64,000 nucleotides of DNA from Candidatus Omnitrophota bacterium (GCA_040753015.1 JBFMHM010000002.1:102111-166110), one strand, 5' to 3'; shown: positions 1,994 to 44,659, numbered from the stretch's first letter. The notes: generated from the sequence alone by a model not told the origin. Numbers and translations: made by a program.

Positions 1994-1999
1994 GTTGAA

Positions 2000-3016: not shown

Positions 3017-3024
3017 ATTCTCAT

Positions 3025-3849: not shown

Positions 3850-3850
3850 G

Positions 3851-4474: not shown

Positions 4475-4483
4475 AATAATCTC

Positions 4484-5287: not shown

Positions 5288-5290
5288 AAA

Positions 5291-6088: not shown

Positions 6089-6091
6089 TAG

Positions 6092-21873: not shown

Positions 21874-22220
21874 TTATTAAGCTCCTTTTCTAACTGTAGC
21901 GTAATCTTTTCACTGCCTCTTATTAGAATAACCTCATTTTTCTTTATGTCAAATACTAAATAATCGTTAAAGGCTTGTCCCTTCTTCAAAACAATACCGT
22001 TGATAACCGCTAACGACTCGCCGCTCTTATCAAATACAATCCCTTCTAAATTCAGCACACTTGTTTCTTTCGGTTCAAGATCTATTATTTGTCCGGTTTC
22101 GGTAACAAGCGGCAAAAAAGGGTCTCTTTTATTTTTTGATTCATAAACAAATTTATTTTGTTCAGCAAATAAATTTAAAAAAATAAAAACAAATAATAAA
22201 TTTAATAAAAATATTTTCAT
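21870..22220 (-). CDS. pilP: PilP-like pilus assembly protein
   Basis: It is a small protein with a signal peptide, an RDPF motif, and sits between pilO and pilQ. Confidence 0.6.
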   Translation of the reverse strand: MKIFLLNLLFVFIFLNLFAEQNKFVYESKNKRDPFLPLVTETGQIIDLEPKETSVLNLEGIVFDKSGESLAVINGIVLKKGQAFNDYLVFDIKKNEVILIRGSEKITLQLEKELNK

Positions 22221-22786
22221 TATTTTACTATAAAAGCCCCTAGTGTTAAATGCACAACTTGGGTAGTATAAAGCTGCTTATCAAATTTTATATCAATAAA
22301 TAAAACCTTTAAGAATTGATCTAGGTTTTCTAGTTTATTTATAAACCTGCCCAATTGATGATAACCGCTATGTATATATATATTTATCATCACTGGATAA
22401 ATATCTCCCTTTGAATAGCCGCTGATCTTTTTTGCCTTTGGATCTTCTATAGGAGATATCTGGATTATTTTAACATCCTCCTCTCTACCAATCTTAGAAA
22501 TTTTTTCTACAAGAGTAAGCAGCTCATCTTCTTGTATAATTCTTTTGTCTAGACCGATTGATTTTTTATTTAAAATCTCAAAGCTTGCTTTTAATTGGTT
22601 TAAATTCTTTTTATCTTCCTCGAAAGCTTTTAAATCAGCCGATAATTTATTAATTTCTGGTGAAATTTTTTTTATTGTTAAGATTTGCGGTTTAATAATA
22701 AATAATATATCTATTGCCAAAACAGTAATTATAATTAATAAATAAATTATGATTTTTTTTTGTTTTAAAAAATCAAGCTTCATCAT
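22220..22786 (-). CDS. pilO: PilO-like pilus assembly protein
   Basis: It is bitopic with a coiled-coil region, and sits between pilN and pilP. Confidence 0.65.
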   Translation of the reverse strand: MMKLDFLKQKKIIIYLLIIITVLAIDILFIIKPQILTIKKISPEINKLSADLKAFEEDKKNLNQLKASFEILNKKSIGLDKRIIQEDELLTLVEKISKIGREEDVKIIQISPIEDPKAKKISGYSKGDIYPVMINIYIHSGYHQLGRFINKLENLDQFLKVLFIDIKFDKQLYTTQVVHLTLGAFIVK

Positions 22787-23343
22787 TTTATTTTAACCCT
22801 TAATATAAAATCAATTATATCGATACCTTGAAAATTTCTTTTTTTTGCATCTGCCAGCTCAAGCTTATCAGATACCTTAATATTTTTTTCATTCTTTAGA
22901 CTGGTTAAAAATTTATTGAGAAGCGACATCTCATCTTCTTTTAAGGAAACAACGCTTCCTTCAAGCTCAAATTCTGTTTCGTCTAATTTTAAGTGCCTAA
23001 ACCATATCCCGTTGGATAAATCCATGCTTAATCTATTTAACGCAAATGCTACTTCCATTCTATCTTTAGTAATATCTAAAATTTTACTGGTATCTGCCTG
23101 CAAGAGCTTAACTCTATTCTTGAGATCGCTGATTTCTTTTAGATCTTGTTCTATCTTAGGAACTATGGATTTAAGATTCCTAAATTTAATTTTTTTAAAA
23201 ATAAAAGTGCTCCCTATTAAAAGATGAATAAAGGCCAAAATAATTACTAAAGCAATAATAACATTATAATAAAAATCTTTATTAAATTCTGCATTAATGT
23301 TTTTTTTCTTTAGCTTTTCTGGCAATAAATTAATATCGATCAT
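22783..23343 (-). CDS. pilN: PilN-like pilus assembly protein
   Basis: It starts MIDINLLP, is bitopic, and follows pilM. Confidence 0.7.
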   Translation of the reverse strand: MIDINLLPEKLKKKNINAEFNKDFYYNVIIALVIILAFIHLLIGSTFIFKKIKFRNLKSIVPKIEQDLKEISDLKNRVKLLQADTSKILDITKDRMEVAFALNRLSMDLSNGIWFRHLKLDETEFELEGSVVSLKEDEMSLLNKFLTSLKNEKNIKVSDKLELADAKKRNFQGIDIIDFILRVKIK

Positions 23344-24336
23344 CTATAAACCTCTTAAAGCAAGCCCAAGCGATATTAATAGAGAATTCTTATTGGAATT
23401 AAACTTTTCGCGATCAACGCCTTCTTTTAATTCTATATTATCTATATTTGGCCAAAATAATACCTGTATACCAAGATAATTCTGTAAAATACCTTCAATT
23501 CCCTTAAGATTCGCTCCTCCGCCTGAAATAAAAATCTTCTTTATCGAAAAGTGAGCCTGGCTTTCATAATAATCAAACGAAGCCCGTATCTCAGAACAAA
23601 AATTTTGCATAGTTTGTTCGATTGCCGGATTAACTTTTTCCATGCCCTCTTTAGTACTGCATTTTAATTCCTCTGCTTGCTCAATAGATAAATTTAATTT
23701 ATCAGAAATAGCCTGCGTAAAAATATTACCTCCGAATAACAAATCCCTAGTAAATTCCGGATTACCATTATCAATAATTACCAAGTTGCTAACCTGGGAG
23801 CCAATATTTAAAAGAGCGAATGGCTCTTTATTGATCTCTCTATTAAAAAAATTGAATGCGTTAATTAAACATACGGAATCCACATCAATAACCCCTAAGT
23901 TTAAACCAAGCTCCTGAATAAGCTTAATCTTTTCATCAATTAAAGCTTTTTTAGCAGCAACAACTAAAACGAGCATCTTCTTATCAGCAAGGTCTTTTAA
24001 AATAAAACTATCTAAATAAACTTCGCTAATAGGAAATGGAATATGTTTTTCTGCCTCGAAATAAAGTGAATTTTTAAGCTCGGTATTAGTTAACTTCGGA
24101 AAAGTCAGATAGCGGATTAAAACATTCGGCCCGCCAACAGAGAGATTCACTGATTCTTTAGTAATATTAAAATTTTTAATCTGCGCCTTCAATGATTCAA
24201 AATTATTTGACTTGTTCTTTTCAATTATAAAACTATTGAGCGATATATTGCCAGAAATTCTCTCTAATGAAGTTAGTTTTATTGTATGATTACCAATATC
24301 CAATCCAAAAGTCTTTTTTGTTTTTTTAAATAACAT
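23344..24336 (-). CDS. pilM: type IV pilus assembly ATPase-fold protein PilM
   Basis: It has an actin-like fold (FGLDIGNHTIKL) and heads the pilMNOPQ block. Confidence 0.85.
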   Translation of the reverse strand: MLFKKTKKTFGLDIGNHTIKLTSLERISGNISLNSFIIEKNKSNNFESLKAQIKNFNITKESVNLSVGGPNVLIRYLTFPKLTNTELKNSLYFEAEKHIPFPISEVYLDSFILKDLADKKMLVLVVAAKKALIDEKIKLIQELGLNLGVIDVDSVCLINAFNFFNREINKEPFALLNIGSQVSNLVIIDNGNPEFTRDLLFGGNIFTQAISDKLNLSIEQAEELKCSTKEGMEKVNPAIEQTMQNFCSEIRASFDYYESQAHFSIKKIFISGGGANLKGIEGILQNYLGIQVLFWPNIDNIELKEGVDREKFNSNKNSLLISLGLALRGL

Positions 24337-24341
24337 ATAAA

Positions 24342-24566
24342 TTAAATAATAAGTGGCTCTTCTTGTTGTTCATCTGTACCTTTATCTTCTTTTTCTATAT
24401 TCTCTATATTAAATATTGGCTGTGCTGGCTGTTCGTCAACCTTAATACTTTCTTGTATTTGCTCGGGAATTTTTTTAGCTTCATTATTAATGTGATTTAT
24501 CCAAAATATAAAAACTAAAATAATTATAAAAAAGATAATAAATATATATAATAATTTCGACTTCAT
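24342..24566 (-). CDS. small single-pass membrane protein (start likely the internal MKSKLLYIFIIFF...)
   Basis: The hydrophobic helix is followed by an acidic tail. If the internal Met is the start, the gene begins right after the stop of the upstream gene. Confidence 0.35.
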   Translation of the reverse strand: MKSKLLYIFIIFFIIILVFIFWINHINNEAKKIPEQIQESIKVDEQPAQPIFNIENIEKEDKGTDEQQEEPLII

Positions 24567-26251
24567 TCTAAAACTCCTTCCTTCCAGGTAAGCAAGGCAC
24601 TTGGCCAAGTAGGTGTTGAAATATAATTACTTAAAGTAGGAAAATATGGCGGCGCATAACCCTCGAGCATTCTTTGATCATATATGAATTTTCTTCCATA
24701 GCCTGAGCGCAGATCACTTCCGCTAAAAGTTCCAAAAGCGCCATAAAAATCTGTGATTGCTCCACCTAGCAATGTAACATTGCCTGACGGCGACCTTGAA
24801 TCATAATTATCAACTGTAAATACGCCATGAACTGACATTATAACAGCATGTATATCTAAATTACTCGGGGCATCTGCCCCAATTCTAACATCACCGCCCC
24901 ATGATAAAAGACCTAAAAGATTTTCGTAACCAGTTGCATTAACTGGCGGGCCTGCATTATATTGTTCATAGCGTATATGATTATTAATCACTATATCTCT
25001 CTCGCTAGAGATTGTAACTTGGGAACAATTCTGGACCATACCGCTCACACCTCTGATATTTCCTTTTCCGTAAATTATTACACCTGCATCACCTACGCCA
25101 TCAGGAATACCTTGATAAGTATTTGAGTTCTCTCCTTCTCTTACAGTTGTTTGGTTATTTGCATAATCAACAATTATCTCCTTTGTCGTTGAACCTTGAG
25201 TAATCGCATATCTTGCATTACCACCAACGACAGACATTATTAAACTATCTGCATCGCCTCTTATATAAACACCGCCTGTCACATTAGCGCCATCGTTAGG
25301 CACATAAATTCCATCTTGCCCCGGCTCATTCATATCGCCAAGAGCCTGTACTCTTAAATCATTAGAAGTTACCACTGATTCTAAATTTATCAACGGCACA
25401 TCTCTTAAAAAATTAACGCCTTGCCCAAATTGAGGCACATCACGAGGAGGATTACTGCTAGCATCTAAAAAAATAGATCTGCCATTATTATAATAACGAG
25501 TTGTTTTCATTTTTTGAGATACTTCTATACCAGTATCAGACAACTTATCAAACCGGCCGCTTGGATTACCTGCAAAACTAAAACGCTCATTTGTGTGAAC
25601 TGGGCCATAAAATTGAGTTTTATCTGTAAACCAAACAGTAGTTCCGTTCTCCATCATATGATGAAAAGTAAAAAGTGCATACCTTGCAAAATTTCCACGC
25701 TGCACCCTAACAGAAAATTCACCATTTAAAAAAGAAACCTGCCTCGTAATATTAGGAGTAACAGCATTAATTAAACCTGTGCCTGTAATTCTAAATTTAT
25801 AAGGGAAGTTGTATACTTCTCCCTGTTTTGTAGGGATGCCGTTTGGACTGATAAAAATTGTCCCTGAATAAGTACCCCTAACATCGCTCCCCAAGCCAAT
25901 CGCTGTTAAACTAACTTGAGCCTCATTATTAATAATACTAAATTGCGGCTGGCCATCTTCATAAGCATAATCTGCCAAAAATCCTAAAGAATTATTAAGA
26001 TATTCATCAAAAGCATTATTTCTTGAAACTTTATTAAGCTGAATATTTAAATCTGAATTAATCCTTTTTCGCAGCTCTGATAAACCATGGTTAATTCCTG
26101 CTTCGGCTAGGTAAAGAGATTGATTAGCATATTTTGATGTATCGCTTGCTCTTTTTTCTGAAACAGTACTTGAGAAAAAAACTGCCGTTAAAATTAATAA
26201 TACCGATAAAACAAGCGCTGTTGCAACAAGTATAATCCCGCGTTTTTGCAT
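24563..26251 (-). CDS. large PilX_N-domain pilus-associated protein (candidate tip/adhesin component)
   Basis: The N-terminus (MQKRGIILVATALVLSVLLILTAVFFSS) resembles the PilX N-terminal domain. The remaining ~500 aa are a Gly/Asn/Thr-rich, predicted beta-rich ectodomain. Confidence 0.55.
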   Translation of the reverse strand: MQKRGIILVATALVLSVLLILTAVFFSSTVSEKRASDTSKYANQSLYLAEAGINHGLSELRKRINSDLNIQLNKVSRNNAFDEYLNNSLGFLADYAYEDGQPQFSIINNEAQVSLTAIGLGSDVRGTYSGTIFISPNGIPTKQGEVYNFPYKFRITGTGLINAVTPNITRQVSFLNGEFSVRVQRGNFARYALFTFHHMMENGTTVWFTDKTQFYGPVHTNERFSFAGNPSGRFDKLSDTGIEVSQKMKTTRYYNNGRSIFLDASSNPPRDVPQFGQGVNFLRDVPLINLESVVTSNDLRVQALGDMNEPGQDGIYVPNDGANVTGGVYIRGDADSLIMSVVGGNARYAITQGSTTKEIIVDYANNQTTVREGENSNTYQGIPDGVGDAGVIIYGKGNIRGVSGMVQNCSQVTISSERDIVINNHIRYEQYNAGPPVNATGYENLLGLLSWGGDVRIGADAPSNLDIHAVIMSVHGVFTVDNYDSRSPSGNVTLLGGAITDFYGAFGTFSGSDLRSGYGRKFIYDQRMLEGYAPPYFPTLSNYISTPTWPSALLTWKEGVLE

Positions 26252-26841
26252 TAGAATTCCCCCTCTTCACCAGCAATCTCTTCTACTGGCACATCATTAA
26301 TAACTACTGAATTATTGCGTAAAGATATTTGTGAACTCAAAACAAAAGTATCCTGATTTATTATAACCGGTATTCTAACCAATATTTCTGAACGCGATCC
26401 ATTTAAAAATTGGAAAAATGGTTTTTCAGATGCAACATTATTTATCACAGCGTCAGTTAGCGGAATTTGGCCACCGGCGCCTGCAATTCTGAATAATTGT
26501 TTGCCATCCTGTCCTGCACAGTAAATTCTCTCTTCCTGAAGACCTATGATCTCACCAGAAATATCAAAAATAGGCACATAAAATCTTATTGCATCTCCTG
26601 CTGCATTAATTTCTATCTCGTAATTAACACCATCAACTTGCCACATTGGCGCTGATTCACGCAGCTGCAAAGCAATAAAATCCATTGCCTTTCTTGCCTC
26701 TTGCTGAGTCTCTAATTTAAGCCTACCAATCCGCCAAGATTGATTTGAATAATATATAATACTTAATGTTAAACCGAAAATAAAAGAAAAAACAGCAACT
26801 ACAACTAAAATTTCGACTAATGTATACGCCCTGTTTTTCAT
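26251..26841 (-). CDS. minor pilin/pseudopilin (PilW/GspJ-like, prepilin N-terminal domain)
   Basis: The prepilin-type N-terminal helix is AYTLVEILVVVAVFS. Confidence 0.6.
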   Translation of the reverse strand: MKNRAYTLVEILVVVAVFSFIFGLTLSIIYYSNQSWRIGRLKLETQQEARKAMDFIALQLRESAPMWQVDGVNYEIEINAAGDAIRFYVPIFDISGEIIGLQEERIYCAGQDGKQLFRIAGAGGQIPLTDAVINNVASEKPFFQFLNGSRSEILVRIPVIINQDTFVLSSQISLRNNSVVINDVPVEEIAGEEGEF

Positions 26842-27300
26842 TTATCTCGACACCAAAGAAACAACTTCTATGGGAGAATCAAGACGGTTATTTGCATTTA
26901 AATCTTCGCCTGCGTCAAATAACCCATTTAGATTAATATCTTCGCCAATAAGCCTGTTTTGAGACTGCCTAAAAGAAACTATTATTCTTATTTCACGAAG
27001 ATCTGTATAGCCAGCTATATCCGTAACTTCAACCCTCCCTTTTGCCCTGCCCAAGGTAAAACCCGTCACATCAAAAACTTCGCCATTATGATTTAATAAA
27101 TTATCAAATGTTTCCTGTTTTAATTCTTCCATTTTTGTCCTAGCGCCGCTTAAAGCAATTGTTGTGTTTCTAGATGTTTCATTTAATATAAAACAACCAA
27201 TATATGTAACAAGTAAACCACATAAACAAAAAACTAATATTCCTGCGGCTACTAAAACTTCAATTAAAGTAAAACCAGAATTAATTTTTTTAATTTTCAT
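26842..27300 (-). CDS. minor pilin (PilV-like, prepilin N-terminal methylation domain)
   Basis: The N-terminus is SGFTLIEVLVAAGIL. Confidence 0.65.
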   Translation of the reverse strand: MKIKKINSGFTLIEVLVAAGILVFCLCGLLVTYIGCFILNETSRNTTIALSGARTKMEELKQETFDNLLNHNGEVFDVTGFTLGRAKGRVEVTDIAGYTDLREIRIIVSFRQSQNRLIGEDINLNGLFDAGEDLNANNRLDSPIEVVSLVSR

Positions 27301-27302
27301 AA

Positions 27303-27737
27303 CTATGAAAATATTGGGTCTGCCGCACTTGCAGGCCCACCTTCTTTAAACCGGACAATACCGCTTTGATCCATAAAAAAATAACGCGGATTACCAACAT
27401 TATTAATAGGATTCGCATTAATTATAAAACCACTATCTGTTTGAGAATAAAAAAAATTATAATTTTGCCTTCTTCCGGAAGCTAATTCAGTATCAATATA
27501 AGGCGGGGTTGAATTAGGAGGAATTAAATCTGCTAGGCCGCCGGGATATGCTTGATTATTGTTTAAAAATAATTGGCAGGCATTGTTAATTGCGCGCAAT
27601 CCGCTAACAGCCATTCCTTCGCTAGCTGTTGTGCGAGAACGCAATAGATTCGGAATCCCTATAGAAAGAATGACAAGAAGTATAGCAACAACAACCATCA
27701 TTTCAACTAAAGTAAACCCGAATCTTTGTTTATTCAT
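27303..27737 (-). CDS. type IV pilin / GspG-like pseudopilin
   Basis: The N-terminus is QRFGFTLVEMMVVVAILLVILSIGIPNLLRSR. Confidence 0.7.
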   Translation of the reverse strand: MNKQRFGFTLVEMMVVVAILLVILSIGIPNLLRSRTTASEGMAVSGLRAINNACQLFLNNNQAYPGGLADLIPPNSTPPYIDTELASGRRQNYNFFYSQTDSGFIINANPINNVGNPRYFFMDQSGIVRFKEGGPASAADPIFS

Positions 27738-27781
27738 TTAAATTTTTTATAATTTATAATAACAAATTTAATCTTAAATTA

Positions 27782-27809
27782 ATTTTACTATTTAGGTTAT
27801 AAAAGTCAA
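27782..27809 (-). promoter_or_regulatory. candidate sigma70 promoter for the downstream pilin/minor-pilin genes (TTGACT, 16-nt spacer, TAAAAT)
   Basis: The minus strand reads cTTGACTtttataacctaaatagTAAAATt. It lies between the terminator hairpin and the ATG at 27737. Confidence 0.35.
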
Positions 27810-27820
27810 GTAAAAGATAC

Positions 27821-27857
27821 TAAAAAATACCCCGATACAAAAATTGTATCGGGGTAT
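27821..27857 (-). terminator. intrinsic terminator after the major pilin gene
   Basis: A perfect 12-bp stem (ataccccgatac / gtatcggggtat) with a 5-6-nt loop is followed on the minus strand by a T-run (TATTTTTTAG). Confidence 0.55.
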
Positions 27858-27879
27858 TTGTGTGTGCTAGAACTATAAA

Positions 27880-28287
27880 TTATGCGCAAGCTGCTGAGGT
27901 TAACACGCCGCCAGTAGTAATAGTATAAGTATTATTTCCTGTGGTACCGCAAGTTACCGGAGTTGCTGTCACTGTATAACCTGCTGCTGCTGTATTAACA
28001 GCAAAATTATAGCCTTGAAGGGCTATACCATTATAACCTCTGTTTAGATACGGAGGATTTGCACCAGTCAAAGCAGCCTCGTTTGCAGGATAGTTACCAT
28101 TATTTGCTGCTGCAAATGTCTCACATGCAGTTGAAATTGTACGCAAGGTTGCTTGTGCATTTGATTCATTAGCTGTTAATCTCGCACGAAGTAAGTTTGG
28201 AATTGCAATTGCTGCCAAAAGCGCAATAATAGCAACTACTATCATAATTTCGACGAGAGTGAAACCTTTTCTATTCTTTATAAACAT
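27880..28287 (-). CDS. pilA: major type IV pilin (PilA-like); real start is the internal MFIKNRKGFTLVEIM
   Basis: AGGAGG lies 9 nt upstream of the ATG at 28285-28287. The class III signal peptide is KGFTLVEIMIVVAIIALLAAIAIPNLLRAR, and the C-terminal Cys pair would form the disulfide loop. Confidence 0.75.
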   Translation of the reverse strand: MFIKNRKGFTLVEIMIVVAIIALLAAIAIPNLLRARLTANESNAQATLRTISTACETFAAANNGNYPANEAALTGANPPYLNRGYNGIALQGYNFAVNTAAAGYTVTATPVTCGTTGNNTYTITTGGVLTSAACA

Positions 28288-28382
28288 ATAGATAACGCCT
28301 CCTTTCTTAGGTATAATTAATCCCAAGCTTCTTTAAAAAATAAAATGAAACCAATAAAAAAGCCCTGATTACCTAATGTCTT

Positions 28383-28411
28383 AATTATATTTTAAATTAT
28401 TAAAAAAGTCA
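28383..28411 (-). promoter_or_regulatory. near-consensus sigma70 promoter for pilA (TTGACT, 17-nt spacer, TATAAT)
   Basis: The minus strand reads cattgacttttttaataatttaaaatataatta. Both hexamers match the consensus, with a 17-nt spacer. Confidence 0.55.
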
Positions 28412-28420
28412 ATGTTTTAT

Positions 28421-29617
28421 TTAAGCGCTTATTAAAGAAGTTATTTTAAAAATCGGTAAAAATAAAGCAACAACTATCCCTCCAATTACAGTTCCTAAAA
28501 AAACAATTACAAGCGGCTCAATCATATTTGATAGATTGGCCAACGTAATATCGACTTGTTCTTCGTAAAAATCTGCGATCTTGCCAAGCATTTTTTCGAG
28601 TTCGCCTGTCTGTTCTCCTACAGAGATCATCCTTGTAACCATCGGCGGAAAAATACGGCTTTCCATAAGAGGTTTTGCAATCGGTTCCCCCTCTTTAATA
28701 GATACCCTACTTTTTTCTATCGCCTCTTCAACAATTTTATTGCCTGAAGTTTTTGAAACTATTTCAAGGGCTGTTAAAATTGGAACGCCGCTTTTTACTA
28801 AAGTAGAAAATGTACGGCTGAATTTTGCAACAGCCATATTACGAAATAACGGACCAAAGATGGGAGCTTTTAAAATAATCTTATGAAAATTATATTTACC
28901 TTTTTCAGTATTAACATACTTTTTAAATAAAAAAGCGCTAATTATCAAAATGATCACTGTTAATAAAAAATTATACCTTAGTAAATCACTCGCGGCAATT
29001 AAAATTTTTGTTGGCATAGGCAATGTTCCTCCTAGCATCTCAAAAATCCCTTTAAATGTCGGAACAACCTTAATTAAAAGAAAAGAAGTAATACCAATAG
29101 CTATAATTATAACTAAAACTGGATAAACTAAGGCAGACTTCACTTTTCTGATGAATGAAGCGGTTTTTTCTAAATAAGTTGCGAGCCTTTCTAAAACAGC
29201 ATTCAGCATACCTGATGCCTCGCCCGCTTTTGCCATATTAACAAAAAGTTCGCTAAAGATTGCGGGATGTTTTTTTAATGCATCACAAAAATTTATTCCT
29301 TGTTCAATATCCTGTTTTATTTTTAAAATTATACTGGCAAGATATTTATTATCTGTTTGTTCGGATAGAATAAGAAGAGCCTGGACTAATGGTATTCCGC
29401 TATCGACTAAAGTTGCAAGCTGCCTTGCAAAACCAGCTAGCTGATCAAGTTTAATTGTTTTCTTTGCAACTAATTTAGATTTTTCTTCAATTAAAGAAAT
29501 TATCGTGAGGTCTTTTTTGTGAAGAATCGCTTGGGCTTCCTTTGTATCTAAAGCTTCTAATGCCCCCTTAAGAGTATCGCCATTAATATTTTTTACGGTG
29601 TATTTGAAATTCGCCAT
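28421..29617 (-). CDS. pilC: type IV pilus inner-membrane platform protein PilC (GspF family)
   Basis: The fold is a duplicated GspF/PilC domain with three TM helices. Confidence 0.9.
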   Translation of the reverse strand: MANFKYTVKNINGDTLKGALEALDTKEAQAILHKKDLTIISLIEEKSKLVAKKTIKLDQLAGFARQLATLVDSGIPLVQALLILSEQTDNKYLASIILKIKQDIEQGINFCDALKKHPAIFSELFVNMAKAGEASGMLNAVLERLATYLEKTASFIRKVKSALVYPVLVIIIAIGITSFLLIKVVPTFKGIFEMLGGTLPMPTKILIAASDLLRYNFLLTVIILIISAFLFKKYVNTEKGKYNFHKIILKAPIFGPLFRNMAVAKFSRTFSTLVKSGVPILTALEIVSKTSGNKIVEEAIEKSRVSIKEGEPIAKPLMESRIFPPMVTRMISVGEQTGELEKMLGKIADFYEEQVDITLANLSNMIEPLVIVFLGTVIGGIVVALFLPIFKITSLISA

Positions 29618-29618
29618 A

Positions 29619-30686
29619 TTATACCTTGTCTAATACCTTTAAAAAAACTTCAACAATTTTAGGATCAAATTGGCTCCCGGAATTCCTCTTGATTTCTTCT
29701 ATTGCCTCTTGTTTAGATAAAGGCGTCTTCCTATAAGATCTAGCAGAAGTCATTGCATCATAGCTATCAGCAACACAAATTATTCTAGCTCCTAAAGGAA
29801 TCTGTTCTCCTTTTAGCCCATCTGGATAGCCCTTACCATCAAAACGCTCATGATGATGTTTTATCAACCCGATTGTATTATCTAAAAAGGTTAATGGTTC
29901 TAAAATTTGAACTGCTTTAATTGTATGCAATTCTACCTCGCGCCTTTCTTCTTTGGTTAATTTACCAGGCTTACTTAAAATATAGTCTGATATGCCTATT
30001 TTACCCAAATCATGAAGTTGGCAAGCTTCTTTGATTATCTCAATTTCTTTCGCCGGTAGATTCAATTCTTCTGCAATTAATAATGCATACTTAGACACCT
30101 TCTCAGAATGGCTTGAAGTAAAATGATCCCTTGCTTCAATAGCCTGCGCAAAAGCATTAACAGTACGTAGGTATGTCTGCCTTAAATCATCATATAACCG
30201 GCTTAGATTTTTTGTCGAATCTTCGATCCTTTTCGCAAGCAGTATATTTTGTTTTTGCAAAGACATATTTTGTTCAGATAAAGCCCTGTCAGCCTTATGC
30301 GAATGCACAGTTATATTCCTTGCTTCAATTGCTTTTTTAATAATAAAAACTAAATGGTTAAAATCAACAGGGAGATTTAAATAATCATAAATTTCTGCTC
30401 TATAAATTTCCGAAAAGACATCCGGGCTTAAATTTTCAACCAAAGCAATAATAATACTATCTGGATCTACTTCTTTTATCGCTCTAACCATATCAATGCC
30501 GGTAAGTTCTTCCGTGCTCCATTGAATAATAATGACATCAAAAGAAATTTTACGTATTAGATTAATTCCTGACCAAAAATGATTTTCGCTTTTAATTTGG
30601 CAATTCAAAATCATTAAAGCTTGTTTTATTGTCTTTACGATTGTTTCATCTTTATTAATAATCAAAATGTTAATATTTTCGTTCAC
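29619..30686 (-). CDS. pseudo-receiver / HD-GYP c-di-GMP phosphodiesterase
   Basis: The C-terminus has HD ... HHERFDGKGYPDGL. The N-terminal REC-like domain lacks the acidic pocket (NKDE replaces DDE) and lacks the phospho-acceptor Asp (IIIQWS). Confidence 0.8.
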   Translation of the reverse strand: MNENINILIINKDETIVKTIKQALMILNCQIKSENHFWSGINLIRKISFDVIIIQWSTEELTGIDMVRAIKEVDPDSIIIALVENLSPDVFSEIYRAEIYDYLNLPVDFNHLVFIIKKAIEARNITVHSHKADRALSEQNMSLQKQNILLAKRIEDSTKNLSRLYDDLRQTYLRTVNAFAQAIEARDHFTSSHSEKVSKYALLIAEELNLPAKEIEIIKEACQLHDLGKIGISDYILSKPGKLTKEERREVELHTIKAVQILEPLTFLDNTIGLIKHHHERFDGKGYPDGLKGEQIPLGARIICVADSYDAMTSARSYRKTPLSKQEAIEEIKRNSGSQFDPKIVEVFLKVLDKV

Positions 30687-30699
30687 AATGTTATCCTTT

Positions 30700-32397
30700 T
30701 TATTCTTCGGTGGTTGCTTCTACTGCTTCTTCTAAAGAAATAACCCCTTGCTGAACTTTTAATAAAGCGTCATCTCTTAAAGTTCTCATCTTTAGTTCTT
30801 TAATAGCATACTCGTTAATCTGAGAAGAATCAACTTTTTTCACAATCATCTCACGAATTTTATCATTAATAATAAGCGCCTCTAATATTGCAACCCTGCC
30901 TAAATAACCTGTATTATTACAGTATTGACATCCCTTGCCTCTAAAAAAAGTTATTTTATCTTTAATTCTTAATTTTTCAATTAAATCTTTTGGAACGCTT
31001 TCTTCTTCTTTGCAATGCGTGCATATTTTTCTACATAATCTTTGAGCGCAAGCAAAAATTAAACTTGAAGCAATAAGAAATGGTTCAACTCCCATATCAA
31101 TCAATCTAGTTATGCTGGAAGCCGCGTCATTTGTATGCAAAGTCGAAAGTATTAATTGTCCTGTAAGCGATGCTTTAACGGCAATATCTGCGGTTTCACC
31201 ATCGCGAATTTCTCCAATCATTATAACATCCGGGCTCTGCCTAAGTAAAGACCTGAGCCCTTGTGCAAAATCTAAGCCAATTTCCGGCTTAACCTGCACC
31301 TGAGTAATACCTTCGATCTGATATTCTACAGGATCTTCAATAGTAATAATATTTTTTTGTGGAGTATTTAGCTGTGTAACAATTGAATATAACGTTGTTG
31401 ATTTTCCTGATCCTGTTGGGCCAGTGACTAAAATCATGCCAAAAGGTTTTTTTATTGCTTCTTGGAAAAGCCTTAAAGGTTCTTCCGAAAAACCTAGCTT
31501 CTCAAGGCCGAAAGAAAGATTGCCCTTATCTAATGCTCTTAAAACGAACTTCTGGCCAAAATTAATCGGCAGGCATGAAACACGAAAATCAATTTCTCTA
31601 CCTTCTAATCTAACTTTAAAACGCCCGTCCTGTGGAATACGTGATTCTGTAATATCCATGCCAGAAACTATTTTTAGCCTTGCCGTTACTGCATTTTGCT
31701 TTGACCTAGGAATATTAAACACTTCGTGTAAAATTCCGTCAATTCGATATCTGATACGAACCATTCCTTCCTCGGGCTCAATATGGATGTCCGAAGCCCT
31801 TCTTTTAAGTGCTTCTATTATTAATAAATCTACGAGTTTTACAATTGGTGCTTTTGAGCTTTCTTCAATTAACTCACCTAAATTCATAGAAGATTCTTCT
31901 TTTACCACCTCAACATCTTCACCTAAACTTTGCGCCTCTAAAACAAGCTTAGATAAATCTTCACCTTTTTTATAATAACTATCTATAGCTAAAACTATAT
32001 CTTGTTCTGATGTCAGAACTAAATCAATCTTAAAACCGGTTAGAACCTTTAAATCGTCTAAAGCAAAAATATTAAGAGGATCCACGATAGCAACAGTAAG
32101 AGTTTTTCCAATGACTGAAATTGGAATTAATTGATATTGACGGCAAATTTTTTCTGGAACTAATCCAATTACAGACGGCTCTATTTTATATTTAGATAAT
32201 TTAATATGGGGTATTAATAATTCTCGAGATAATAAAGCAATAAGATCATCTTCGGAAATAACTTTTTCTTTTAATAAAATATCGCGGAATGATTCTTTTG
32301 TCTGCTTATGTGATTTAAGCAACGACTCTATCTGTTCCTTAGTCGCTTTTTTATCTTTCGTCAAAACTTCTATAAGTGTATCTTTAAGGCTTATCAT
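30700..32397 (-). CDS. pilB: type IV pilus assembly ATPase PilB (GspE family), paralog 1
   Basis: It has an N-terminal GSPII_E_N domain, Walker A (GPTGSGKSTTLYS), Asp/His boxes and the tetracysteine motif (CTHC ... CQYC). Confidence 0.85.
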   Translation of the reverse strand: MISLKDTLIEVLTKDKKATKEQIESLLKSHKQTKESFRDILLKEKVISEDDLIALLSRELLIPHIKLSKYKIEPSVIGLVPEKICRQYQLIPISVIGKTLTVAIVDPLNIFALDDLKVLTGFKIDLVLTSEQDIVLAIDSYYKKGEDLSKLVLEAQSLGEDVEVVKEESSMNLGELIEESSKAPIVKLVDLLIIEALKRRASDIHIEPEEGMVRIRYRIDGILHEVFNIPRSKQNAVTARLKIVSGMDITESRIPQDGRFKVRLEGREIDFRVSCLPINFGQKFVLRALDKGNLSFGLEKLGFSEEPLRLFQEAIKKPFGMILVTGPTGSGKSTTLYSIVTQLNTPQKNIITIEDPVEYQIEGITQVQVKPEIGLDFAQGLRSLLRQSPDVIMIGEIRDGETADIAVKASLTGQLILSTLHTNDAASSITRLIDMGVEPFLIASSLIFACAQRLCRKICTHCKEEESVPKDLIEKLRIKDKITFFRGKGCQYCNNTGYLGRVAILEALIINDKIREMIVKKVDSSQINEYAIKELKMRTLRDDALLKVQQGVISLEEAVEATTEE

Positions 32398-32399
32398 TG

Positions 32400-34109
32400 C
32401 TATTCATCCGGGGCTGTTATTCTTACTACCTCTTCTAAAGTTGTAATGCCTTCGCTTGCTTTCTCCATACCTTCCTCTCTCAACGTAAGCATACCTTCAT
32501 CCCTGCTTATTTTTTTAATCATGTATTCCTGGGCGCCTTCCAAAACAAGATCTCTAATTTTAGGCGTCAAAATTAGCACTTCAGCAATAGCAACTCTTCC
32601 TTTATAGCCGGTATTAAAACATTGCGCGCAACCTTTTGCTCTATAGAATTTTCTTGTTGGAATTTTTTTTAAATTCAGAGACTGCATTATATCATCGGAT
32701 AAAACATATTCTTCTCGGCAACTTACACAAACTTTTCTAAGAAGCCGTTGAGCAATAATCGCAATAACAGATGAAGTAATTAAAAAGGGCTCTATGCCAA
32801 TATTGGCTAAACGCATAACAGCTGCAGGAGCTGTTGTGGTATGAACAGTAGTTAATACTAGATGCCCTGTTAACGCTGCCTTAATTGATATATCAGCTGT
32901 TTCATGATCCCTAATCTCACCTACCATAATAACATCGGGATCCTGTCTTAATATTGAACGTAGGCAGCTTGCAAAAGTTAAATCAACCTCTGGCCTTATG
33001 TTAACTTGATTTATACCTGCCAACTGAAATTCAATTGGATCTTCAACCGTTATAATATTCTCTCTTGGGGTATCAATAAACTCTAATATAGAATATAACG
33101 TTGTAGTCTTTCCTGACCCAGTAGGGCCGCAAACAATAATCATGCCATGTGGTTTTTGTGAAGACCTCTTAATTCTATCTAATGCAGTTTGGGAAAAACC
33201 TAATTTTTCAATATCAAGCTGAGCTTGCGATTTATCTAATACGCGAAGAGCAACCTTTTCCCCAAACGAAGAGGCAATAACAGAAACACGAAAATCCACT
33301 TCCCGCGTACCTATTTTTATTTTAAAACGACCGTCTTGAGGAAGCCTATGCTCGGCAACATTAAGATTAGAAATAACCTTTATCCTGGAAACAATAGGCG
33401 CAAGCATAGATTTTGGCGGAGACTCCTGCTCTTGTAAAACACCGTCTATTCTATATCGAACACGCATCCTATTTTCTAATGGTTCAATTAAAATATCTGA
33501 TGCATACATATTAACTGCTTTTTCTAAAATCATGTTTGCTACTTTTATAACCGGGGCCTCATTTATAATTTGATTTATTGTAGCCAAAGAAAAAACTTCT
33601 TCTTTCTCGGCTCTAATTAACTCAATACTCCCGTCCTTAAAACCTTCGACCAGCTCTTCTATAGCTTCTTTTGCGCTTTCTTCATAATATTGATTTATAG
33701 TAGCATTAAGTTCTGAAGGAGAAACGATAACAGGAGTTATTTGATAGCCTGTAAGACTCTTAACATCATCGATTGCGAATACATCTAAAGGATCGCTCAT
33801 TGCAAGTGTTAGAGTCTTTCCAATCAAGGATACTGGGATAATTTGATATCGATGCGCTAAATCTTTACTGATGATTTTTATAACTGACCTTTCGATTTTA
33901 ATCCGCTTCAGGTCAATAATCGGGAATCCGAGGCCTTCGCTCAAAACTGGAAATAACTCTTTTTCTTTGATCAGATTATCTTCTATTAATATATCAACAA
34001 GCCTCTTCCTTCTCTTCTTGGCTAAATCAATAGCTTCTTTTAATTTGATTTCGGAGATTAAATTATTTTTTATTAAAATCTCATAAACTCTCTGAGCAAT
34101 TGATATCAT
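32400..34109 (-). CDS. GspE/PilB-family assembly ATPase, paralog 2
   Basis: The architecture matches paralog 1 (GPTGSGKTTTLYS; CVSC ... CAQC). It is about 45% identical to paralog 1 by eye. Confidence 0.8.
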   Translation of the reverse strand: MISIAQRVYEILIKNNLISEIKLKEAIDLAKKRRKRLVDILIEDNLIKEKELFPVLSEGLGFPIIDLKRIKIERSVIKIISKDLAHRYQIIPVSLIGKTLTLAMSDPLDVFAIDDVKSLTGYQITPVIVSPSELNATINQYYEESAKEAIEELVEGFKDGSIELIRAEKEEVFSLATINQIINEAPVIKVANMILEKAVNMYASDILIEPLENRMRVRYRIDGVLQEQESPPKSMLAPIVSRIKVISNLNVAEHRLPQDGRFKIKIGTREVDFRVSVIASSFGEKVALRVLDKSQAQLDIEKLGFSQTALDRIKRSSQKPHGMIIVCGPTGSGKTTTLYSILEFIDTPRENIITVEDPIEFQLAGINQVNIRPEVDLTFASCLRSILRQDPDVIMVGEIRDHETADISIKAALTGHLVLTTVHTTTAPAAVMRLANIGIEPFLITSSVIAIIAQRLLRKVCVSCREEYVLSDDIMQSLNLKKIPTRKFYRAKGCAQCFNTGYKGRVAIAEVLILTPKIRDLVLEGAQEYMIKKISRDEGMLTLREEGMEKASEGITTLEEVVRITAPDE

Positions 34110-34553
34110 TTATTTTTTATAAAATTTGTCAATTGCATTTTTTATATCGCTAAATGTACTTACAAAAATCTGCACGCTTAATTTTGTAAGAGTTTCAATA
34201 TCTTCTACTGCCTGTAGATTTAAAGGATTTGACATTGACACAGTTAGGGTATTGCCAATCTTGTCAATTGGCATCAGGCAATACTGGCGACAAACTCTCT
34301 CTGGAATAATACTGATTATTTCAGAGCCAATTTCATAATTAGAGAGCGGTAAATAGGGATAGCCGTATTGAGTAGTTATCGCCTGAGCAATATCAATTTC
34401 TTTAGCATAACCCATATCAACTAAAACTTCACCAATTAAACCACCCTTTTGTTTTTGCAATAAAAGGGCCTCGTTTAGTTGATCCTGAGTGATAATTTTT
34501 CTTTCAATTAGAAGCTCGCCTAACTGCTTAGTAATTATTTTTCGTGATGGCAT
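34110..34553 (-). CDS. standalone MshEN-like + GSPII_E N-terminal domain protein (candidate c-di-GMP receptor)
   Basis: Two 24-aa motifs separated by 5 aa (LGELLIERKIITQDQLNEALLLQ - KQKGG - LIGEVLVDMGYAKEIDIAQAITTQ) fit the MshEN c-di-GMP-binding consensus. They are followed by a T2SS-E N-terminal domain. Confidence 0.65.
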   Translation of the reverse strand: MPSRKIITKQLGELLIERKIITQDQLNEALLLQKQKGGLIGEVLVDMGYAKEIDIAQAITTQYGYPYLPLSNYEIGSEIISIIPERVCRQYCLMPIDKIGNTLTVSMSNPLNLQAVEDIETLTKLSVQIFVSTFSDIKNAIDKFYKK

Positions 34554-34554
34554 C

Positions 34555-35982
34555 TTAAGCTAAAATTACTCCTTTCGATTCTTTGCTACCAGAAAGCAGC
34601 TCTCTTGCCTTTGTTATTAATTCATTAGCGTTTACTCCATCAAGAGGATTTTCAGAAACCGCAATATTTAATATAATAGGTAACATAATTTCTTTATCAT
34701 TAGATAATAAAGAATCAATCAATCTTTTTAGTTTTATTGCTTTTTCTTTTGCTTGTTTTTTATTTTTTTCAGGAATCACGATAGCGAAACTATTCGAGTT
34801 AAAACGCCCGGCTTTTTCTACAGGGCTTAATTCATCTTTTATTATTAAAGCAATTTTCTTTAGTGCTTTTTCAGCTGTGATATCTCCAAACTGCTGTCTG
34901 TAATCTCTAAAATTTATTATCTCCAGGTCTAAAAATGAACACGGCCTTTGAAACATAATCGCTCTTTTGATTTCATCTTCAAGATAATTAATAATAAAAT
35001 TTTCATTATAAAGCCCTGTTAAAGCATCCCTGGTTTCGAGCTGCTTTACCCTATGAATTAAAGCATCGTTTTCAATAGCTATAGAAATTTGTTTTGAAAA
35101 AATATTTAAAAAATCCATAGACTCTTGGACAAAGAAGAAATCCTCTATATTGTTGCCTATAATCAACATGCCTACAACTTCTTGCTTTGTTACAATCGGA
35201 ATCAATATAATATTCCTTAAACTTAACTCATCAATCAACGCCTGCTCATCCTTTGTAATTTTTTTCCTAGAAACATCTAAAACCAAAACTTTTTTCTCTT
35301 CTATAATTTTTAGAAATAATTTTCCAATATCTCCTTTATCTAAAAATATCTGCTTATTGAATAAAGATTTGGCAAGCTTTCCAGATGCACACACTACTTT
35401 ATAATTTAAACGCTCCTGTTCACTTTTACTAAATAGGACTGCTGCCTCACAACCAGGTATTGCCTGCATCTTTTCAACTGTTGATGATAAAATTTCATCC
35501 AAGGAAAGACCCTGAGTAATAAGATTGCTAACCTGTAGAATACCTGAGAGAACCAATATCCTATTTTGTATCTGAATATTTGTCCTTTGTGCCTCTTGGC
35601 CAAAGACATTTAATTGCTGCATATTATCTTTAACTTTCGAAGTAATTTCATTTAGTGCAGCGCCTAAATCTCCCAGCTCATCTTCTCTGTCTATCTTAAT
35701 CCTTCTTGTATAATCACCATTTGCAATTAATTTTGCATCATTGCTCATTCTAATAAGCGGCTCGATAATCTGTTTAATAAGCAAAAACCCTCCGTATGCA
35801 ACACAAATACTAACTAAAACTATAAATGTAAAATTGATTTTTTTTGAAGCTAGAAGGCTGATATAATCAGAAAAAACATATAATATAACAAGAATAGGAA
35901 TGACAAACGTAAGCGCAAAGGAAATTTTTAGGACATATCGCAGGCTCTTAGTAGTAAGAGAAATTTTTTTTGCTTTCAGCAT
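34555..35982 (-). CDS. membrane HAMP / GGDEF-domain protein with degenerate active site
   Basis: Two TM helices are followed by HAMP and a GGDEF-fold region (RDALTGLYNENF...). The signature reads AGRFNSNSF where GG(D/E)EF is expected. Confidence 0.65.
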   Translation of the reverse strand: MLKAKKISLTTKSLRYVLKISFALTFVIPILVILYVFSDYISLLASKKINFTFIVLVSICVAYGGFLLIKQIIEPLIRMSNDAKLIANGDYTRRIKIDREDELGDLGAALNEITSKVKDNMQQLNVFGQEAQRTNIQIQNRILVLSGILQVSNLITQGLSLDEILSSTVEKMQAIPGCEAAVLFSKSEQERLNYKVVCASGKLAKSLFNKQIFLDKGDIGKLFLKIIEEKKVLVLDVSRKKITKDEQALIDELSLRNIILIPIVTKQEVVGMLIIGNNIEDFFFVQESMDFLNIFSKQISIAIENDALIHRVKQLETRDALTGLYNENFIINYLEDEIKRAIMFQRPCSFLDLEIINFRDYRQQFGDITAEKALKKIALIIKDELSPVEKAGRFNSNSFAIVIPEKNKKQAKEKAIKLKRLIDSLLSNDKEIMLPIILNIAVSENPLDGVNANELITKARELLSGSKESKGVILA

Positions 35983-36054
35983 TTTAAACTCCTTTTATTT
36001 TCTGCCCGCTAAAAATAAATTATCAGATTATTATTATAGATAACTTTTGATTAC

Positions 36055-36083
36055 AATATACTCTAGTGATAAATTAATGTCAA
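36055..36083 (-). promoter_or_regulatory. candidate sigma70 promoter for the GGDEF-pilB-pilC operon (TTGACA, 17-nt spacer, TATATT)
   Basis: The minus strand reads TTGACAttaatttatcactagagTATATT, about 70 nt upstream of an AAAAGGAG RBS and the ATG at 35982. Confidence 0.4.
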
Positions 36084-44133: not shown

Positions 44134-44382
44134 TTAAGATGGCTGGGCTATTCTATGTAAAAGCTCAGAAATAAAAGTTTGATACCTTATACCGAGCCGA
44201 TAAGCTTTATGTTTAATGTTTTCTAGGTCTTGCTTATTTACGCGAATATTTAAAACCGCATCTTTCTTCCTTGCAGATATAACACTAATAATTTGTTCGT
44301 ATTCCCGCTTATCCACAGGAACAAAATGCTCAAGATTATCTTCTATCGCCCGCTCTTCTTTTGTTAATTTAATCTTTCTCAT
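44134..44382 (-). CDS. BrnA-like antitoxin (RHH/CopG-like, DUF4415-type)
   Basis: The C-terminal GIRYQTFISELLHRIA resembles the BrnA G.GYQT.IN.ILR.Y motif. It overlaps the upstream toxin by 14 nt. Confidence 0.55.
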   Translation of the reverse strand: MRKIKLTKEERAIEDNLEHFVPVDKREYEQIISVISARKKDAVLNIRVNKQDLENIKHKAYRLGIRYQTFISELLHRIAQPS

Positions 44383-44659
44383 GGTTTCTCCTGTTTTTGT
44401 AAAATTTCGTTAACTTTCTGCTTGGATATATCGTCTTCAAAAATATTATTTCGCCATCTATTACATACGGCACAGCCCACAGATAACCTTTATACTGATA
44501 AATAAGAATTTTCTGATTTTCTCTATTTGGATGCCTACGTATGTCTATTAGCTTTGAAGCAATGATTTCTTCAAACGAAACGCCGCGCGTTTGCTTAAGA
44601 CGCTCGCTCTTTAATTGGCTCCATCTAATATCTTTCATACATTTATTTTGTATATACAA
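44369..44659 (-). CDS. BrnT-like toxin (DUF497, RelE-fold ribonuclease)
   Basis: Conserved elements are W....NE.NQ.KHGVSFEE and RIISAR-like IFLKTIYPSRKLTKFY. The toxin-before-antitoxin order matches BrnTA. Confidence 0.55.
   Translation of the reverse strand: MYIQNKCMKDIRWSQLKSERLKQTRGVSFEEIIASKLIDIRRHPNRENQKILIYQYKGYLWAVPYVIDGEIIFLKTIYPSRKLTKFYKNRRNHEKD

Follow-up and report, generated by a model that had tools for sequence, protein, structure and literature searches.

Direct control of a type IV pilus motor by cyclic di-GMP (c-di-GMP) is known from the extension ATPase MshE of the Vibrio cholerae MSHA pilus, which binds the nucleotide through two 24-residue motifs separated by a five-residue spacer. 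The guanines are held by clusters of leucines and by the backbone amides of two neighbouring residues, the third of the motif (a glycine) and its successor. Binding is eliminated by the substitutions G11I/L and G40I; XpsE, which carries G11V and G40L besides other changes, has lost it (PMC5013675). In the motor PilF of Thermus thermophilus, a single polypeptide with three GSPII/MshEN domains and one ATPase, only some of the three are able to bind c-di-GMP; GSPII-B, which has K167 and L196 at the motif starts and thus no arginines there, binds it at 6 nM (PMC11731258) and is the tightest binder. In Xanthomonas, pilus assembly is controlled by the degenerate-GGDEF protein FimX, which takes c-di-GMP on its EAL domain, by the small adaptor PilZ and by the PilB N-domain, and in Acinetobacter baylyi two extension motors, PilB and TfpB, serve one pilus (PMC11656802). 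Here we describe a type IVa pilus (T4aP) cluster of Candidatus Omnitrophota bacterium in which a MshEN protein that keeps the c-di-GMP motif is encoded by a gene of its own, directly before two PilB paralogues whose N-terminal domains have lost the essential glycines of that motif. The locus occupies positions 27303-36083 of a 64-kb window (the whole stretch of DNA that was analyzed), and genes of the cluster extend down to 20194.

Genes were identified by Pfam and NCBIfam profile searches of the open reading frames (ORFs) of the window, and ORF calling placed all genes of the cluster on the minus strand. A preliminary description of this DNA had read it as a type IV pilus operon with built-in c-di-GMP-type parts. 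The profile matches bear this out: all genes that it had listed were recovered on the minus strand with strong matches, their ORFs begin and end where it had placed them, and the identity of the parts of this T4aP cluster can be taken as nearly certain. The stretch from the GGDEF gene to pilC, in which the intergenic gaps measure 0-13 nucleotides, is referred to below as the motor module. It comprises the following genes:

34555-35982, minus strand: HAMP-GAF-GGDEF protein, 475 amino acids, two transmembrane segments (GGDEF E 2.5e-19, GAF 2.5e-10, HAMP 2.9e-9)
34110-34553, minus strand: stand-alone MshEN protein, 147 amino acids (MshEN, PF05157, E 1.2e-19, 70.5 bits)
32400-34109, minus strand: PilB-a (paralog 2 of the preliminary description), 569 amino acids (MshEN and T2SSE, E 1e-133)
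30700-32397, minus strand: PilB-b (paralog 1 of the preliminary description), 565 amino acids (MshEN and T2SSE, E 2e-134)
29619-30686, minus strand: pseudo-receiver and HD-GYP protein, 355 amino acids (REC and HD-GYP domains by profile)
28421-29617, minus strand: PilC platform protein, 398 amino acids (two T2SSF repeats)

The stand-alone protein carries both halves of the c-di-GMP motif. Motif I reads Q10-L-G-E-L-L-I...L26...L30..Q33 and motif II, after the five-residue spacer, L39-I-G-E-V-L-V...I55...I59..Q62; the 24-5-24 spacing is exact. An alignment of the stand-alone family revealed that residues L11, G12, L26, L30, Q33, G41, and Q62 are invariant in all 112 members. The protein scored 60.8 bits on the NCBIfam model of the c-di-GMP motif (NF053729, cut-off 38) and was the only one of the three MshEN-bearing proteins of the window to pass; stand-alone proteins from divergent lineages (about 40% identity) still reached 52.8-62.4 bits. 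The strict published motif expression failed even on the PilB controls from Geobacteraceae, and a loosened form was used instead. This form found the tandem motif in 107 of 120 stand-alone proteins and in the Geobacteraceae controls, as against none of 24 Omnitrophota PilBs. The AlphaFold2 model of the stand-alone protein (predicted local distance difference test score 87.8) had c-di-GMP-bound MshE-N (5HTL) as its top structural match, with template modelling scores of 0.80-0.84, and also matched the X. citri PilB N-domain from the FimX-PilZ-PilB complex (7LKM/7LKO). By this model, the protein is predicted to have the MshE fold. Its best sequence match in the Protein Data Bank was PilF, with 153 bits summed over the repeated GSPII domains. 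The Omnitrophota system shares with MshE the domain family, the modelled fold and a tandem 24-5-24 motif that goes with an extension ATPase of a type IV pilus, and in both systems c-di-GMP is expected to license extension. However, the sensor of MshE is the N-terminus of the ATPase itself, whereas here it would be a separate protein of 147 amino acids, and the motif arginines of MshE are replaced by glutamine and leucine.

The MshE-like logic that the preliminary description had ascribed to the ATPases does not hold as stated, because both of their own N-domains lack the motif glycines. The PilB-a domain has Y9 and V38 at the two glycine sites, as well as A30 and G59, and the PilB-b domain has I9 and R38; on NF053729 they scored 33.9 and 22.1 bits, respectively, both under the cut-off. 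Glycine was present at both sites in none of 108 orthologues (62 PilB-a and 46 PilB-b). PilB-b orthologues mostly have isoleucine and arginine at these sites; PilB-a orthologues mostly have threonine and serine and retain the arginine, leucine and glutamine of motif I.

T4aP genes have been reported in nearly all Omnitrophota, and a role in host attachment has been argued (PMC10066038); the present locus is one of the Omnitrophota T4aP clusters (Seymour et al., 2023). Neither PMC10066038 nor the other searchable literature on Omnitrophota mentions PilT, c-di-GMP, GGDEF, twin PilBs or a stand-alone MshEN gene. For comparison, 12 genome or contig loci (from contig look-ups and a scan of species-representative genomes) and 80 metagenome loci were collected and annotated by BLAST against the window proteins. 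The same gene order was found in about 90 independent Omnitrophota loci, which is far beyond chance. PilB-a is the next gene after MshEN in all 77 loci that offer enough sequence, PilB-b comes after PilB-a in 55 of 55, and upstream of the MshEN gene there are nearly always rodA, a radical SAM gene and a GGDEF-type gene. The stand-alone protein has a fully identical counterpart (100%), annotated as hypothetical, in a Candidatus Omnitrophota metagenome-assembled genome, and thousands of relatives of 147-149 amino acids at 65-75% identity, the named ones all from Omnitrophota; representatives at 39-49% identity lie in the same context, and the two named among them (about 40-43% identical) are Omnitrophota as well. 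Its gene is the most conserved of the module, with a median identity to the window copy of 68%, compared with 58-61% for PilB-a, PilB-b and PilC, 49% for the HD-GYP protein and 39% for the GGDEF protein.

In the window the TAA stop codon of the stand-alone gene abuts the ATG of PilB-a, and the gap between the two genes is at most 10 nucleotides in 34 of 84 loci, which suggests that they are often translationally coupled. All 92 complete stand-alone ORFs were separate genes encoding 145-179 amino acids. That the gene is a frameshift, an assembly artefact or a pseudogene remnant is ruled out by these 92 separate ORFs and by its rank as the most conserved gene of the module. The fused domain is missing from one lineage: at locus L114 (506-3871) the PilB-a orthologue (430 amino acids) begins at the equivalent of residue 189, without any N-terminal MshEN (N1) domain, the PilB-b orthologue (533 amino acids) lacks the helical MshEN_N subdomain, and the sole complete MshEN is that of the stand-alone protein (53.3 bits). 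Additional copies were seen at two other loci. At L006 (12249-12716) a second stand-alone MshEN copy, scoring 60.3 bits on the c-di-GMP-motif model, occupies the position of the HD-GYP gene, and at L111 (110-1037) two tandem copies lie upstream of PilB-a. We infer that the stand-alone protein is in effect a detached N1 domain and that the set resembles the GSPII string of Thermus PilF cut into separate genes. As in PilF, there are several MshEN-like domains per motor; in contrast to the single PilF polypeptide, the extra MshEN is here a separate gene and the ATPases are two paralogues.

Both ATPases were scored on four NCBIfam models. PilB-a and PilB-b obtained 636.0 and 626.5 bits on PilB (TIGR02538, cut-off 675.65), 587.2 and 584.1 bits on GspE (TIGR02533, cut-off 630.25), 456.3 and 466.3 bits on TfpB (NF053534, cut-off 850) and 183.9 and 187.0 bits on PilT (TIGR01420, cut-off 319.1). 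PilB was the top model for both, yet both stayed below its equivalog cut-off, and by these scores they are PilB-type ATPases outside the curated PilB equivalog. They fell under the cut-offs for GspE, with a PilC/PilMNOPQ context, for TfpB, and for PilT/PilU, a type of about 345-370 residues with neither N1 domain nor zinc motif, whereas their 569 and 565 residues include both. Their best solved relatives are the PilBs of Geobacter and Myxococcus (about 550 and about 520 bits), against about 120 bits for PilT, and both lay far from the PilT outgroup in a bootstrapped neighbour-joining tree of the ATPase core. The preliminary description had called them assembly-type ATPases and had itself named clustering with PilT/PilU as the outcome that would speak against this; no such clustering appeared in the scores, the solved relatives or the tree, and the CxxC...CxxC zinc motif it had noted is present in both (CVSC...CAQC and CTHC...CQYC). 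The two proteins consist of N1 and a T2SSE core with Walker A, an atypical Walker B, an Asp box and arginine fingers. The His box of PilB-a is intact (TGH...HT), and neither protein has lost its catalytic glutamate, Walker lysine, second histidine or arginine fingers. Since all catalytic motifs and the zinc finger are kept, it is probable that both work as extension ATPases.

The Omnitrophota sequences of PilB-a and of PilB-b formed separate clades (bootstrap 53 and 83%, respectively) whose inner branching orders agree. The duplication is therefore older than the divergence of the sampled Omnitrophota lineages and, as judged from the tree, is an old one within the phylum. Deep nodes among PilB, GspE and both paralogue clades had bootstrap values of 1-30%, and therefore no claim is made as to which paralogue is the canonical PilB. 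Nineteen positions were fixed and paralogue-specific (62 PilB-a and 46 PilB-b sequences), all but one of them in the ATPase part. In PilB-b (residues 388 and 414), RQSPD stands for RQDPD, and the first histidine of the His box is glutamine in 41 of 46 and glutamate in two of 46 sequences; the window copy reads TGQ in place of TGH. In PilB-a (residues 425-426), about 97% of the sequences have HTTT where nearly all relatives read HTND. The specific changes of both paralogues cluster around the His box, which senses nucleotide between subunits: in Geobacter PilB, T411 is held between H413 and H420 at the interface of two subunits, through which ATP hydrolysis in one chain is coupled to that in another (PMC5424180). 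These observations suggest that PilB-a and PilB-b are both active but functionally differentiated.

Two other cases of paired assembly ATPases were compared. As in A. baylyi, two assembly-type ATPases would serve one T4aP machine, but neither Omnitrophota paralogue is an orthologue of TfpB (456 and 466 bits against 850). Unlike the A. baylyi pair, the Omnitrophota pilB genes are adjacent, arose by duplication inside the phylum and are invariably found together. A tandem PilB-PilB-PilC arrangement is also found in Planctomycetota of the related superphylum (Brocadiaceae and relatives, related to anammox bacteria; L018-L027), and the N-domain of the second PilB there carries QKQKGGLIG, nearly identical to the spacer and motif II of the stand-alone protein. 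The Planctomycetota pair is, however, an independent duplication, its copies clustering together (87% bootstrap); these loci have no stand-alone MshEN gene, and both of their copies keep the canonical TGH/HTND His box.

The first gene of the module had been described as a HAMP-GGDEF protein with a degenerate motif. The degeneracy stands, with NSNSF instead of GG[DE]EF and SPVE instead of RxxD at the I-site; the GAF domain had been missed. Among 59 orthologues the signature is canonical in only one, GDDEF (20) and GDNEF (11) dominate, and RxxD is kept in four. The protein is predicted to be non-catalytic, in agreement with the earlier view of it as synthesis-dead. At L112 (5922-6800), in a lineage of about 40% identity, the gene in this position encodes 292 amino acids that align to the transmembrane, HAMP and GAF residues 3-302, and the GGDEF domain is absent. 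The HD-GYP domain, in contrast to this dead GGDEF domain, is predicted to be competent for degradation, as had been claimed, since all catalytic and metal ligands are kept: in an alignment with the active PmGH (4MCW), the HD dyad and HHERFDGKGYP are in place, as are the remaining histidine and aspartate ligands, the glutamate at the third metal of PmGH being unmatched. HHExxDGxGYP was found in all 30 HD-GYP copies (29 orthologues and that of the window). The receiver domain of the same protein was correctly regarded as a pseudo-receiver. At the positions of CheY D12/D13, D57, T87 and K109 it has N/K, Q, L and L; with all of these replaced, including the phospho-acceptor Asp57 by Gln, phosphorylation of the usual kind is impossible. 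The acceptor site is lysine or glutamine in the three copies aligned to CheY, and lysine is commonest among the 29 further orthologues.

These observations can be combined into a model in which c-di-GMP, if it gates the pilus, most likely does so in trans. The stand-alone MshEN protein would read c-di-GMP for the pilus machine and would act on the PilB motors, or on their PilM/PilC docking site, so as to license extension. The HD-GYP enzyme, present only in the clade of the window, would lower the signal locally. The part of the dead HAMP-GAF-GGDEF protein would be sensing or scaffolding and not synthesis; a loose parallel is FimX-PilZ-PilB, where a degenerate-GGDEF protein likewise acts with a small adaptor on the PilB N-domain; here EAL and PilZ are missing and the candidate receiver of the signal is the MshEN protein. 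Both PilBs would most likely drive one and the same PilC/PilMNOPQ machine, as a pair of motors or assembled into a mixed ring. We regard this explanation as a whole as fairly probable; for the trans-sensing step by the stand-alone protein taken alone, the chances are roughly even.

Several observations weigh against this model. The stand-alone protein of the window lacks the arginine (or lysine, proline or asparagine) at the first position of both motifs, Q10 and L39 departing from even the relaxed published motif, and K19 occupies the Gly/Ala/Ser position (a motif glycine) of motif I. More divergent members of the family have arginine, lysine or proline at the first motif position, and because the arginine-free GSPII-B of PilF still binds at nanomolar concentration, an arginine at the motif start is not strictly required. 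No active diguanylate cyclase was found in the 64-kb window by profile searches of its ORFs. The top solved sequence relative of the HD-GYP protein is V-cGAP3 (5Z7C), specific for cyclic GMP-AMP (cGAMP), which makes the substrate uncertain, and the HD-GYP gene is not a core part of the module, since lineages that carry pilT lack it. Finally, at locus L003 both PilB N-domains exceed the NF053729 cut-off of 38, with 59.7 bits for PilB-a and 43.3 bits for PilB-b. This profile thus fails to part the two classes there, and the call of lost binding rests on the glycine positions; for PilB-a orthologues with a small threonine or serine at these sites, loss of binding appears less certain than for the PilBs of the window.

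Part of this evidence would fit a reading in which the signalling is vestigial, the stand-alone protein being a structural N1 domain or adaptor without c-di-GMP binding, the GGDEF protein only a scaffold, and the HD-GYP protein active on another nucleotide or unrelated to the pilus. The missing motif arginines and K19, the lack of a cyclase among the window ORFs, the free drift of the GGDEF signature among orthologues, the cGAMP-specific relative of the HD-GYP protein and its absence from pilT-type loci all agree with it. However, a structural role alone would not predict that the ligand-contacting residues (the seven invariant positions listed above) are kept in all 112 family members at exact spacing. 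Moreover, the tightest known binder, PilF GSPII-B, is itself arginine-free, and the profile score stays well over the cut-off even at 40% identity. We consider the vestigial reading unlikely.

A second alternative is gating in cis as in MshE, in which c-di-GMP would bind the N-terminal MshEN domain of the PilBs and the stand-alone protein would be an accessory or buffer. Both ATPases do have a Pfam MshEN domain, those of L003 pass the NCBIfam cut-off, and PilB-a orthologues keep the arginine, leucine and glutamine of motif I with small residues at the glycine sites. Nevertheless, the window ATPases remain under that cut-off and have Y9/V38 and I9/R38 instead of the required glycines, at the very sites where MshE G11I/L and G40I and XpsE G11V/G40L are non-binding, and neither the glycine pair (0/108 orthologues) nor the loosened tandem motif (0/24) was seen in the Omnitrophota PilBs. 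Gating in cis is therefore judged quite improbable.

The genes downstream of the motor module bear on a third alternative. They and the expression signals of the locus are as follows:

36055-36083, minus strand: sigma-70-like promoter, TTGACA-17-TATATT, upstream of the GGDEF gene and overlapping the end of the radical SAM gene
28384-28412, minus strand: sigma-70-like promoter, TTGACT-17-TATAAT, before the major pilin gene
27880-28287 (ORF to 28326), minus strand: major pilin candidate, 135 amino acids, leader MFIKNRKG followed by FTLVE
27825-27859, minus strand: intrinsic-terminator-like hairpin, 16-bp stem and T run, after the first pilin gene
27303-27737, minus strand: second pilin, 144 amino acids, N_methyl motif
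26842-27300, minus strand: minor pilin, 152 amino acids, N_methyl
26251-26841, minus strand: minor pilin, 196 amino acids, N_methyl
24563-26251, minus strand: DUF4900 protein, 562 amino acids, PilX_N-like hydrophobic N-terminus
23344-24336, minus strand: PilM, profile match
22783-23343, minus strand: PilN-like, by position; one N-terminal transmembrane segment, no profile match
22220-22786, minus strand: PilO, profile match
21870-22220, minus strand: PilP-like, by position; signal peptide, no profile match
20194-21873, minus strand: PilQ secretin, profile match

The major pilin, the second pilin, the further minor pilins and PilC had been placed correctly, with N_methyl or T2SSF matches at those places. 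For the series called PilMNOPQ, profile matches support PilM, PilO and PilQ, and PilN and PilP are assigned by position only. The supposed giant PilX_N protein does have a PilX_N-like N-terminus, but it is a DUF4900 protein of 562 amino acids and thus not giant, and Pfam reported no PilX_N. The start of the major pilin is probably the ATG at 28287, behind AAGGAGG, and not the end of the ORF at 28326. The promoters and the terminator lie where they had been expected: the two promoters, each scoring 11/12, are the two best sigma-70-like matches in 18 kb, and the hairpin is the strongest such structure found. The motor module, from the GGDEF gene to PilC, is accordingly predicted to be transcribed from one promoter. 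The first pilin has its own promoter and terminator, and the second heads the minor-pilin operon. Rfam at gathering thresholds detected no c-di-GMP riboswitch or other RNA element in the whole window, and the 5' leader of the pilin is too short to hold such a riboswitch. Between the DUF4900 gene and pilM there is a 226-nucleotide gap (24337-24608), partly covered by an 88-amino-acid ORF with a TTG start and no Pfam match, which may be a further transcription boundary. The pilins, the 196-amino-acid minor pilin and the DUF4900 protein (24563-28326) gave weak NCBIfam matches, far below the cut-offs, to proteins D, C and A of the verrucomicrobial 'Verru_Chthon cassette'.

Pilins and PilMNOPQ are contiguous with the module in the window, and no rRNA gene is present. 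At 17 related loci PilC is followed after a few hundred bases by the start of a 16S ribosomal RNA (rRNA) gene, recognized from its exact match to the 27F primer; in L003 the distance is about 410 nucleotides. These loci are L003 (16570), L005 (10949), L031, L036, L038, L041, L043, L044, L045, L053, L056, L065, L073, L083, L085, L095, and L104. Since the motor module lies just upstream of an rRNA operon in them, their pilins and PilMNOPQ must be located elsewhere.

According to the third alternative, suggested in the preliminary description, the two ATPases drive, through a single PilC/PilQ, a pilus and in addition a second type of filament, a pseudopilus or secretion piston. This would agree with the two pilin genes under separate expression signals and with two ATPases that have stayed distinct since a time before the sampled Omnitrophota diverged, with their 19 fixed differences. 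Against it, profile searches found one PilC and one PilMNOPQ set only, with no GspC/L/M alongside the cluster, and for both ATPases the PilB model outscores that of GspE. Many relatives have the rRNA operon instead of pilins after the module, so that the number of adjacent pilins is not conserved, and the only studied case of two extension motors serves one pilus. This leaves little probability for two filaments.

The statement that the locus has no retraction ATPase is true of the window: Pfam found no PilT-like gene among its ORFs of at least 100 amino acids, and tblastn of the window with Omnitrophota PilT matched only the two PilBs. It does not extend to the related loci, some of which carry pilT in the operon. 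The prepilin peptidase PilD, which the pilins need, is likewise missing from the 64 kb; the window therefore does not hold the full set of pilus genes, and the absence of pilT from it says little about the genome. Among 37 loci with the full module, 28 (the window, L003, L005 and 25 more) have the HD-GYP gene between PilB-b and PilC and no pilT within 10 kb, in about 20 kb of sequence. In seven (L007, L009, L010, L011, L013, L090, and L098) pilT lies between the GGDEF gene and that of MshEN, and the HD-GYP gene is missing from its own place; two have neither; both genes at those positions were found together in none of the 37. Further pilT loci are L054, L091, L112, and L116. The pilT of L011 encodes 354 amino acids and scores 470.5 bits on pilT_fam, far above the cut-off of 319.1, and L090 has, besides pilT, an HD-GYP-like gene further upstream. 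The in-operon pilT and HD-GYP genes both encode about 355 amino acids. The pattern is probably a clade-level difference and not a series of independent events. The pilT arrangement is probably ancestral, because it occurs in L013, the earliest-branching locus of the tree, and in two of four divergent contigs (L112 and L116, 40 and 48% identity).

That PilB-b has replaced PilT in this clade as a retraction or disassembly motor, as the lack of pilT in the window and near the 28 HD-GYP-type loci, the lost first His-box histidine (equivalent to H413 of Geobacter PilB) and RQSPD might suggest, is highly improbable and was rejected, since the same substitutions occur beside genuine pilT (L007, L009, L010, and L011) and are thus unlinked to its loss, PilB-b keeps an extension-type N1 domain and zinc finger, and pilT may sit elsewhere, as pilD must.

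A more far-reaching form of the trans model may be considered. In it the locus would encode a three-part machine, with PilB-a and PilB-b as an obligate mixed ring or strictly paired motors and the c-di-GMP-reading N1 domain freed as an exchangeable subunit; in the clade of the window the in-operon PilT would have been replaced by the HD-GYP protein, so that extension would be ended by removal of the signal and not by a dedicated retraction motor. The complementary changes of the two motors, HTND to HTTT in PilB-a, and TGH to TGQ and RQDPD to RQSPD in PilB-b, are grouped about the nucleotide sensor between subunits. This combined reading is put forward tentatively and is unlikely to hold in full.

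The pilus cluster measures 15.8 kb and lies between the radical SAM gene and rng-rplU-obg-proB, within a widely conserved housekeeping array for cell shape and ribosomes (window 16303-44129) in which the coaBC halves, mreBCD, pbp2 and rodA precede the cluster; the rodA-radical SAM-GGDEF junction is kept in most related loci. Several other features of the window were recorded. An ORF of 3584 amino acids (44696-55450, minus strand) joins a pair of AAA+ modules that resemble ClpB (a ClpB D2-small domain included) to long stretches of pentapeptide repeats and a C-terminal M50-type peptidase region. Immediately upstream of it is an ORF of 1312 amino acids (55483-59421, minus strand) with no Pfam match, and the G+C fraction over this region is 0.40-0.44, against about 0.33 elsewhere. 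The interval between the giant ORF and coaBC holds two small overlapping ORFs (44134-44659), one encoding a CopG/NikA-like ribbon-helix-helix protein of 82 amino acids and the other a protein of 96 amino acids without a match, possibly a toxin-antitoxin pair. A partner-switching set lies in 92-7373 and consists of a CHASE2-PP2C phosphatase (92-1993), a STAS protein (6092-6430) and an anti-sigma-type kinase (6427-6873). Interleaved with it are a Mla-like ATP-binding cassette system (MlaD/F/E, 3851-6088), a FecR-domain protein and a beta-barrel porin.

Already known are the T4aP of Omnitrophota, extension ATPases controlled by c-di-GMP through MshEN, partner proteins with a degenerate GGDEF domain, and systems with two motors. 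A free, motif-keeping MshEN protein that occurs across a phylum beside always-paired, motif-lacking PilBs, with one lineage in which the fused domain is gone, has apparently not been described. The control of PilB by N1/MshEN and c-di-GMP is unclear even in model organisms, in which binding leaves the ATPase rate unchanged in vitro and mutant phenotypes differ by species (PMC11656802). A lineage in which the sensor has been severed from the motor offers a natural way to ask what the N1 domain does. The natural question is where the free domain docks (the motor, PilM/PilC or both of these) and whether this docking is altered by c-di-GMP. The paired PilB paralogues provide a second natural case beside the single studied pilus with two extension motors. 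Omnitrophota are ultra-small, uncultured and probably host-dependent bacteria, and their type IV pili are thought to mediate attachment to the host. The module lies between genes for cell shape and ribosomes and occurs in nearly all sampled lineages; its regulation is therefore probably central to the way of life of these bacteria.

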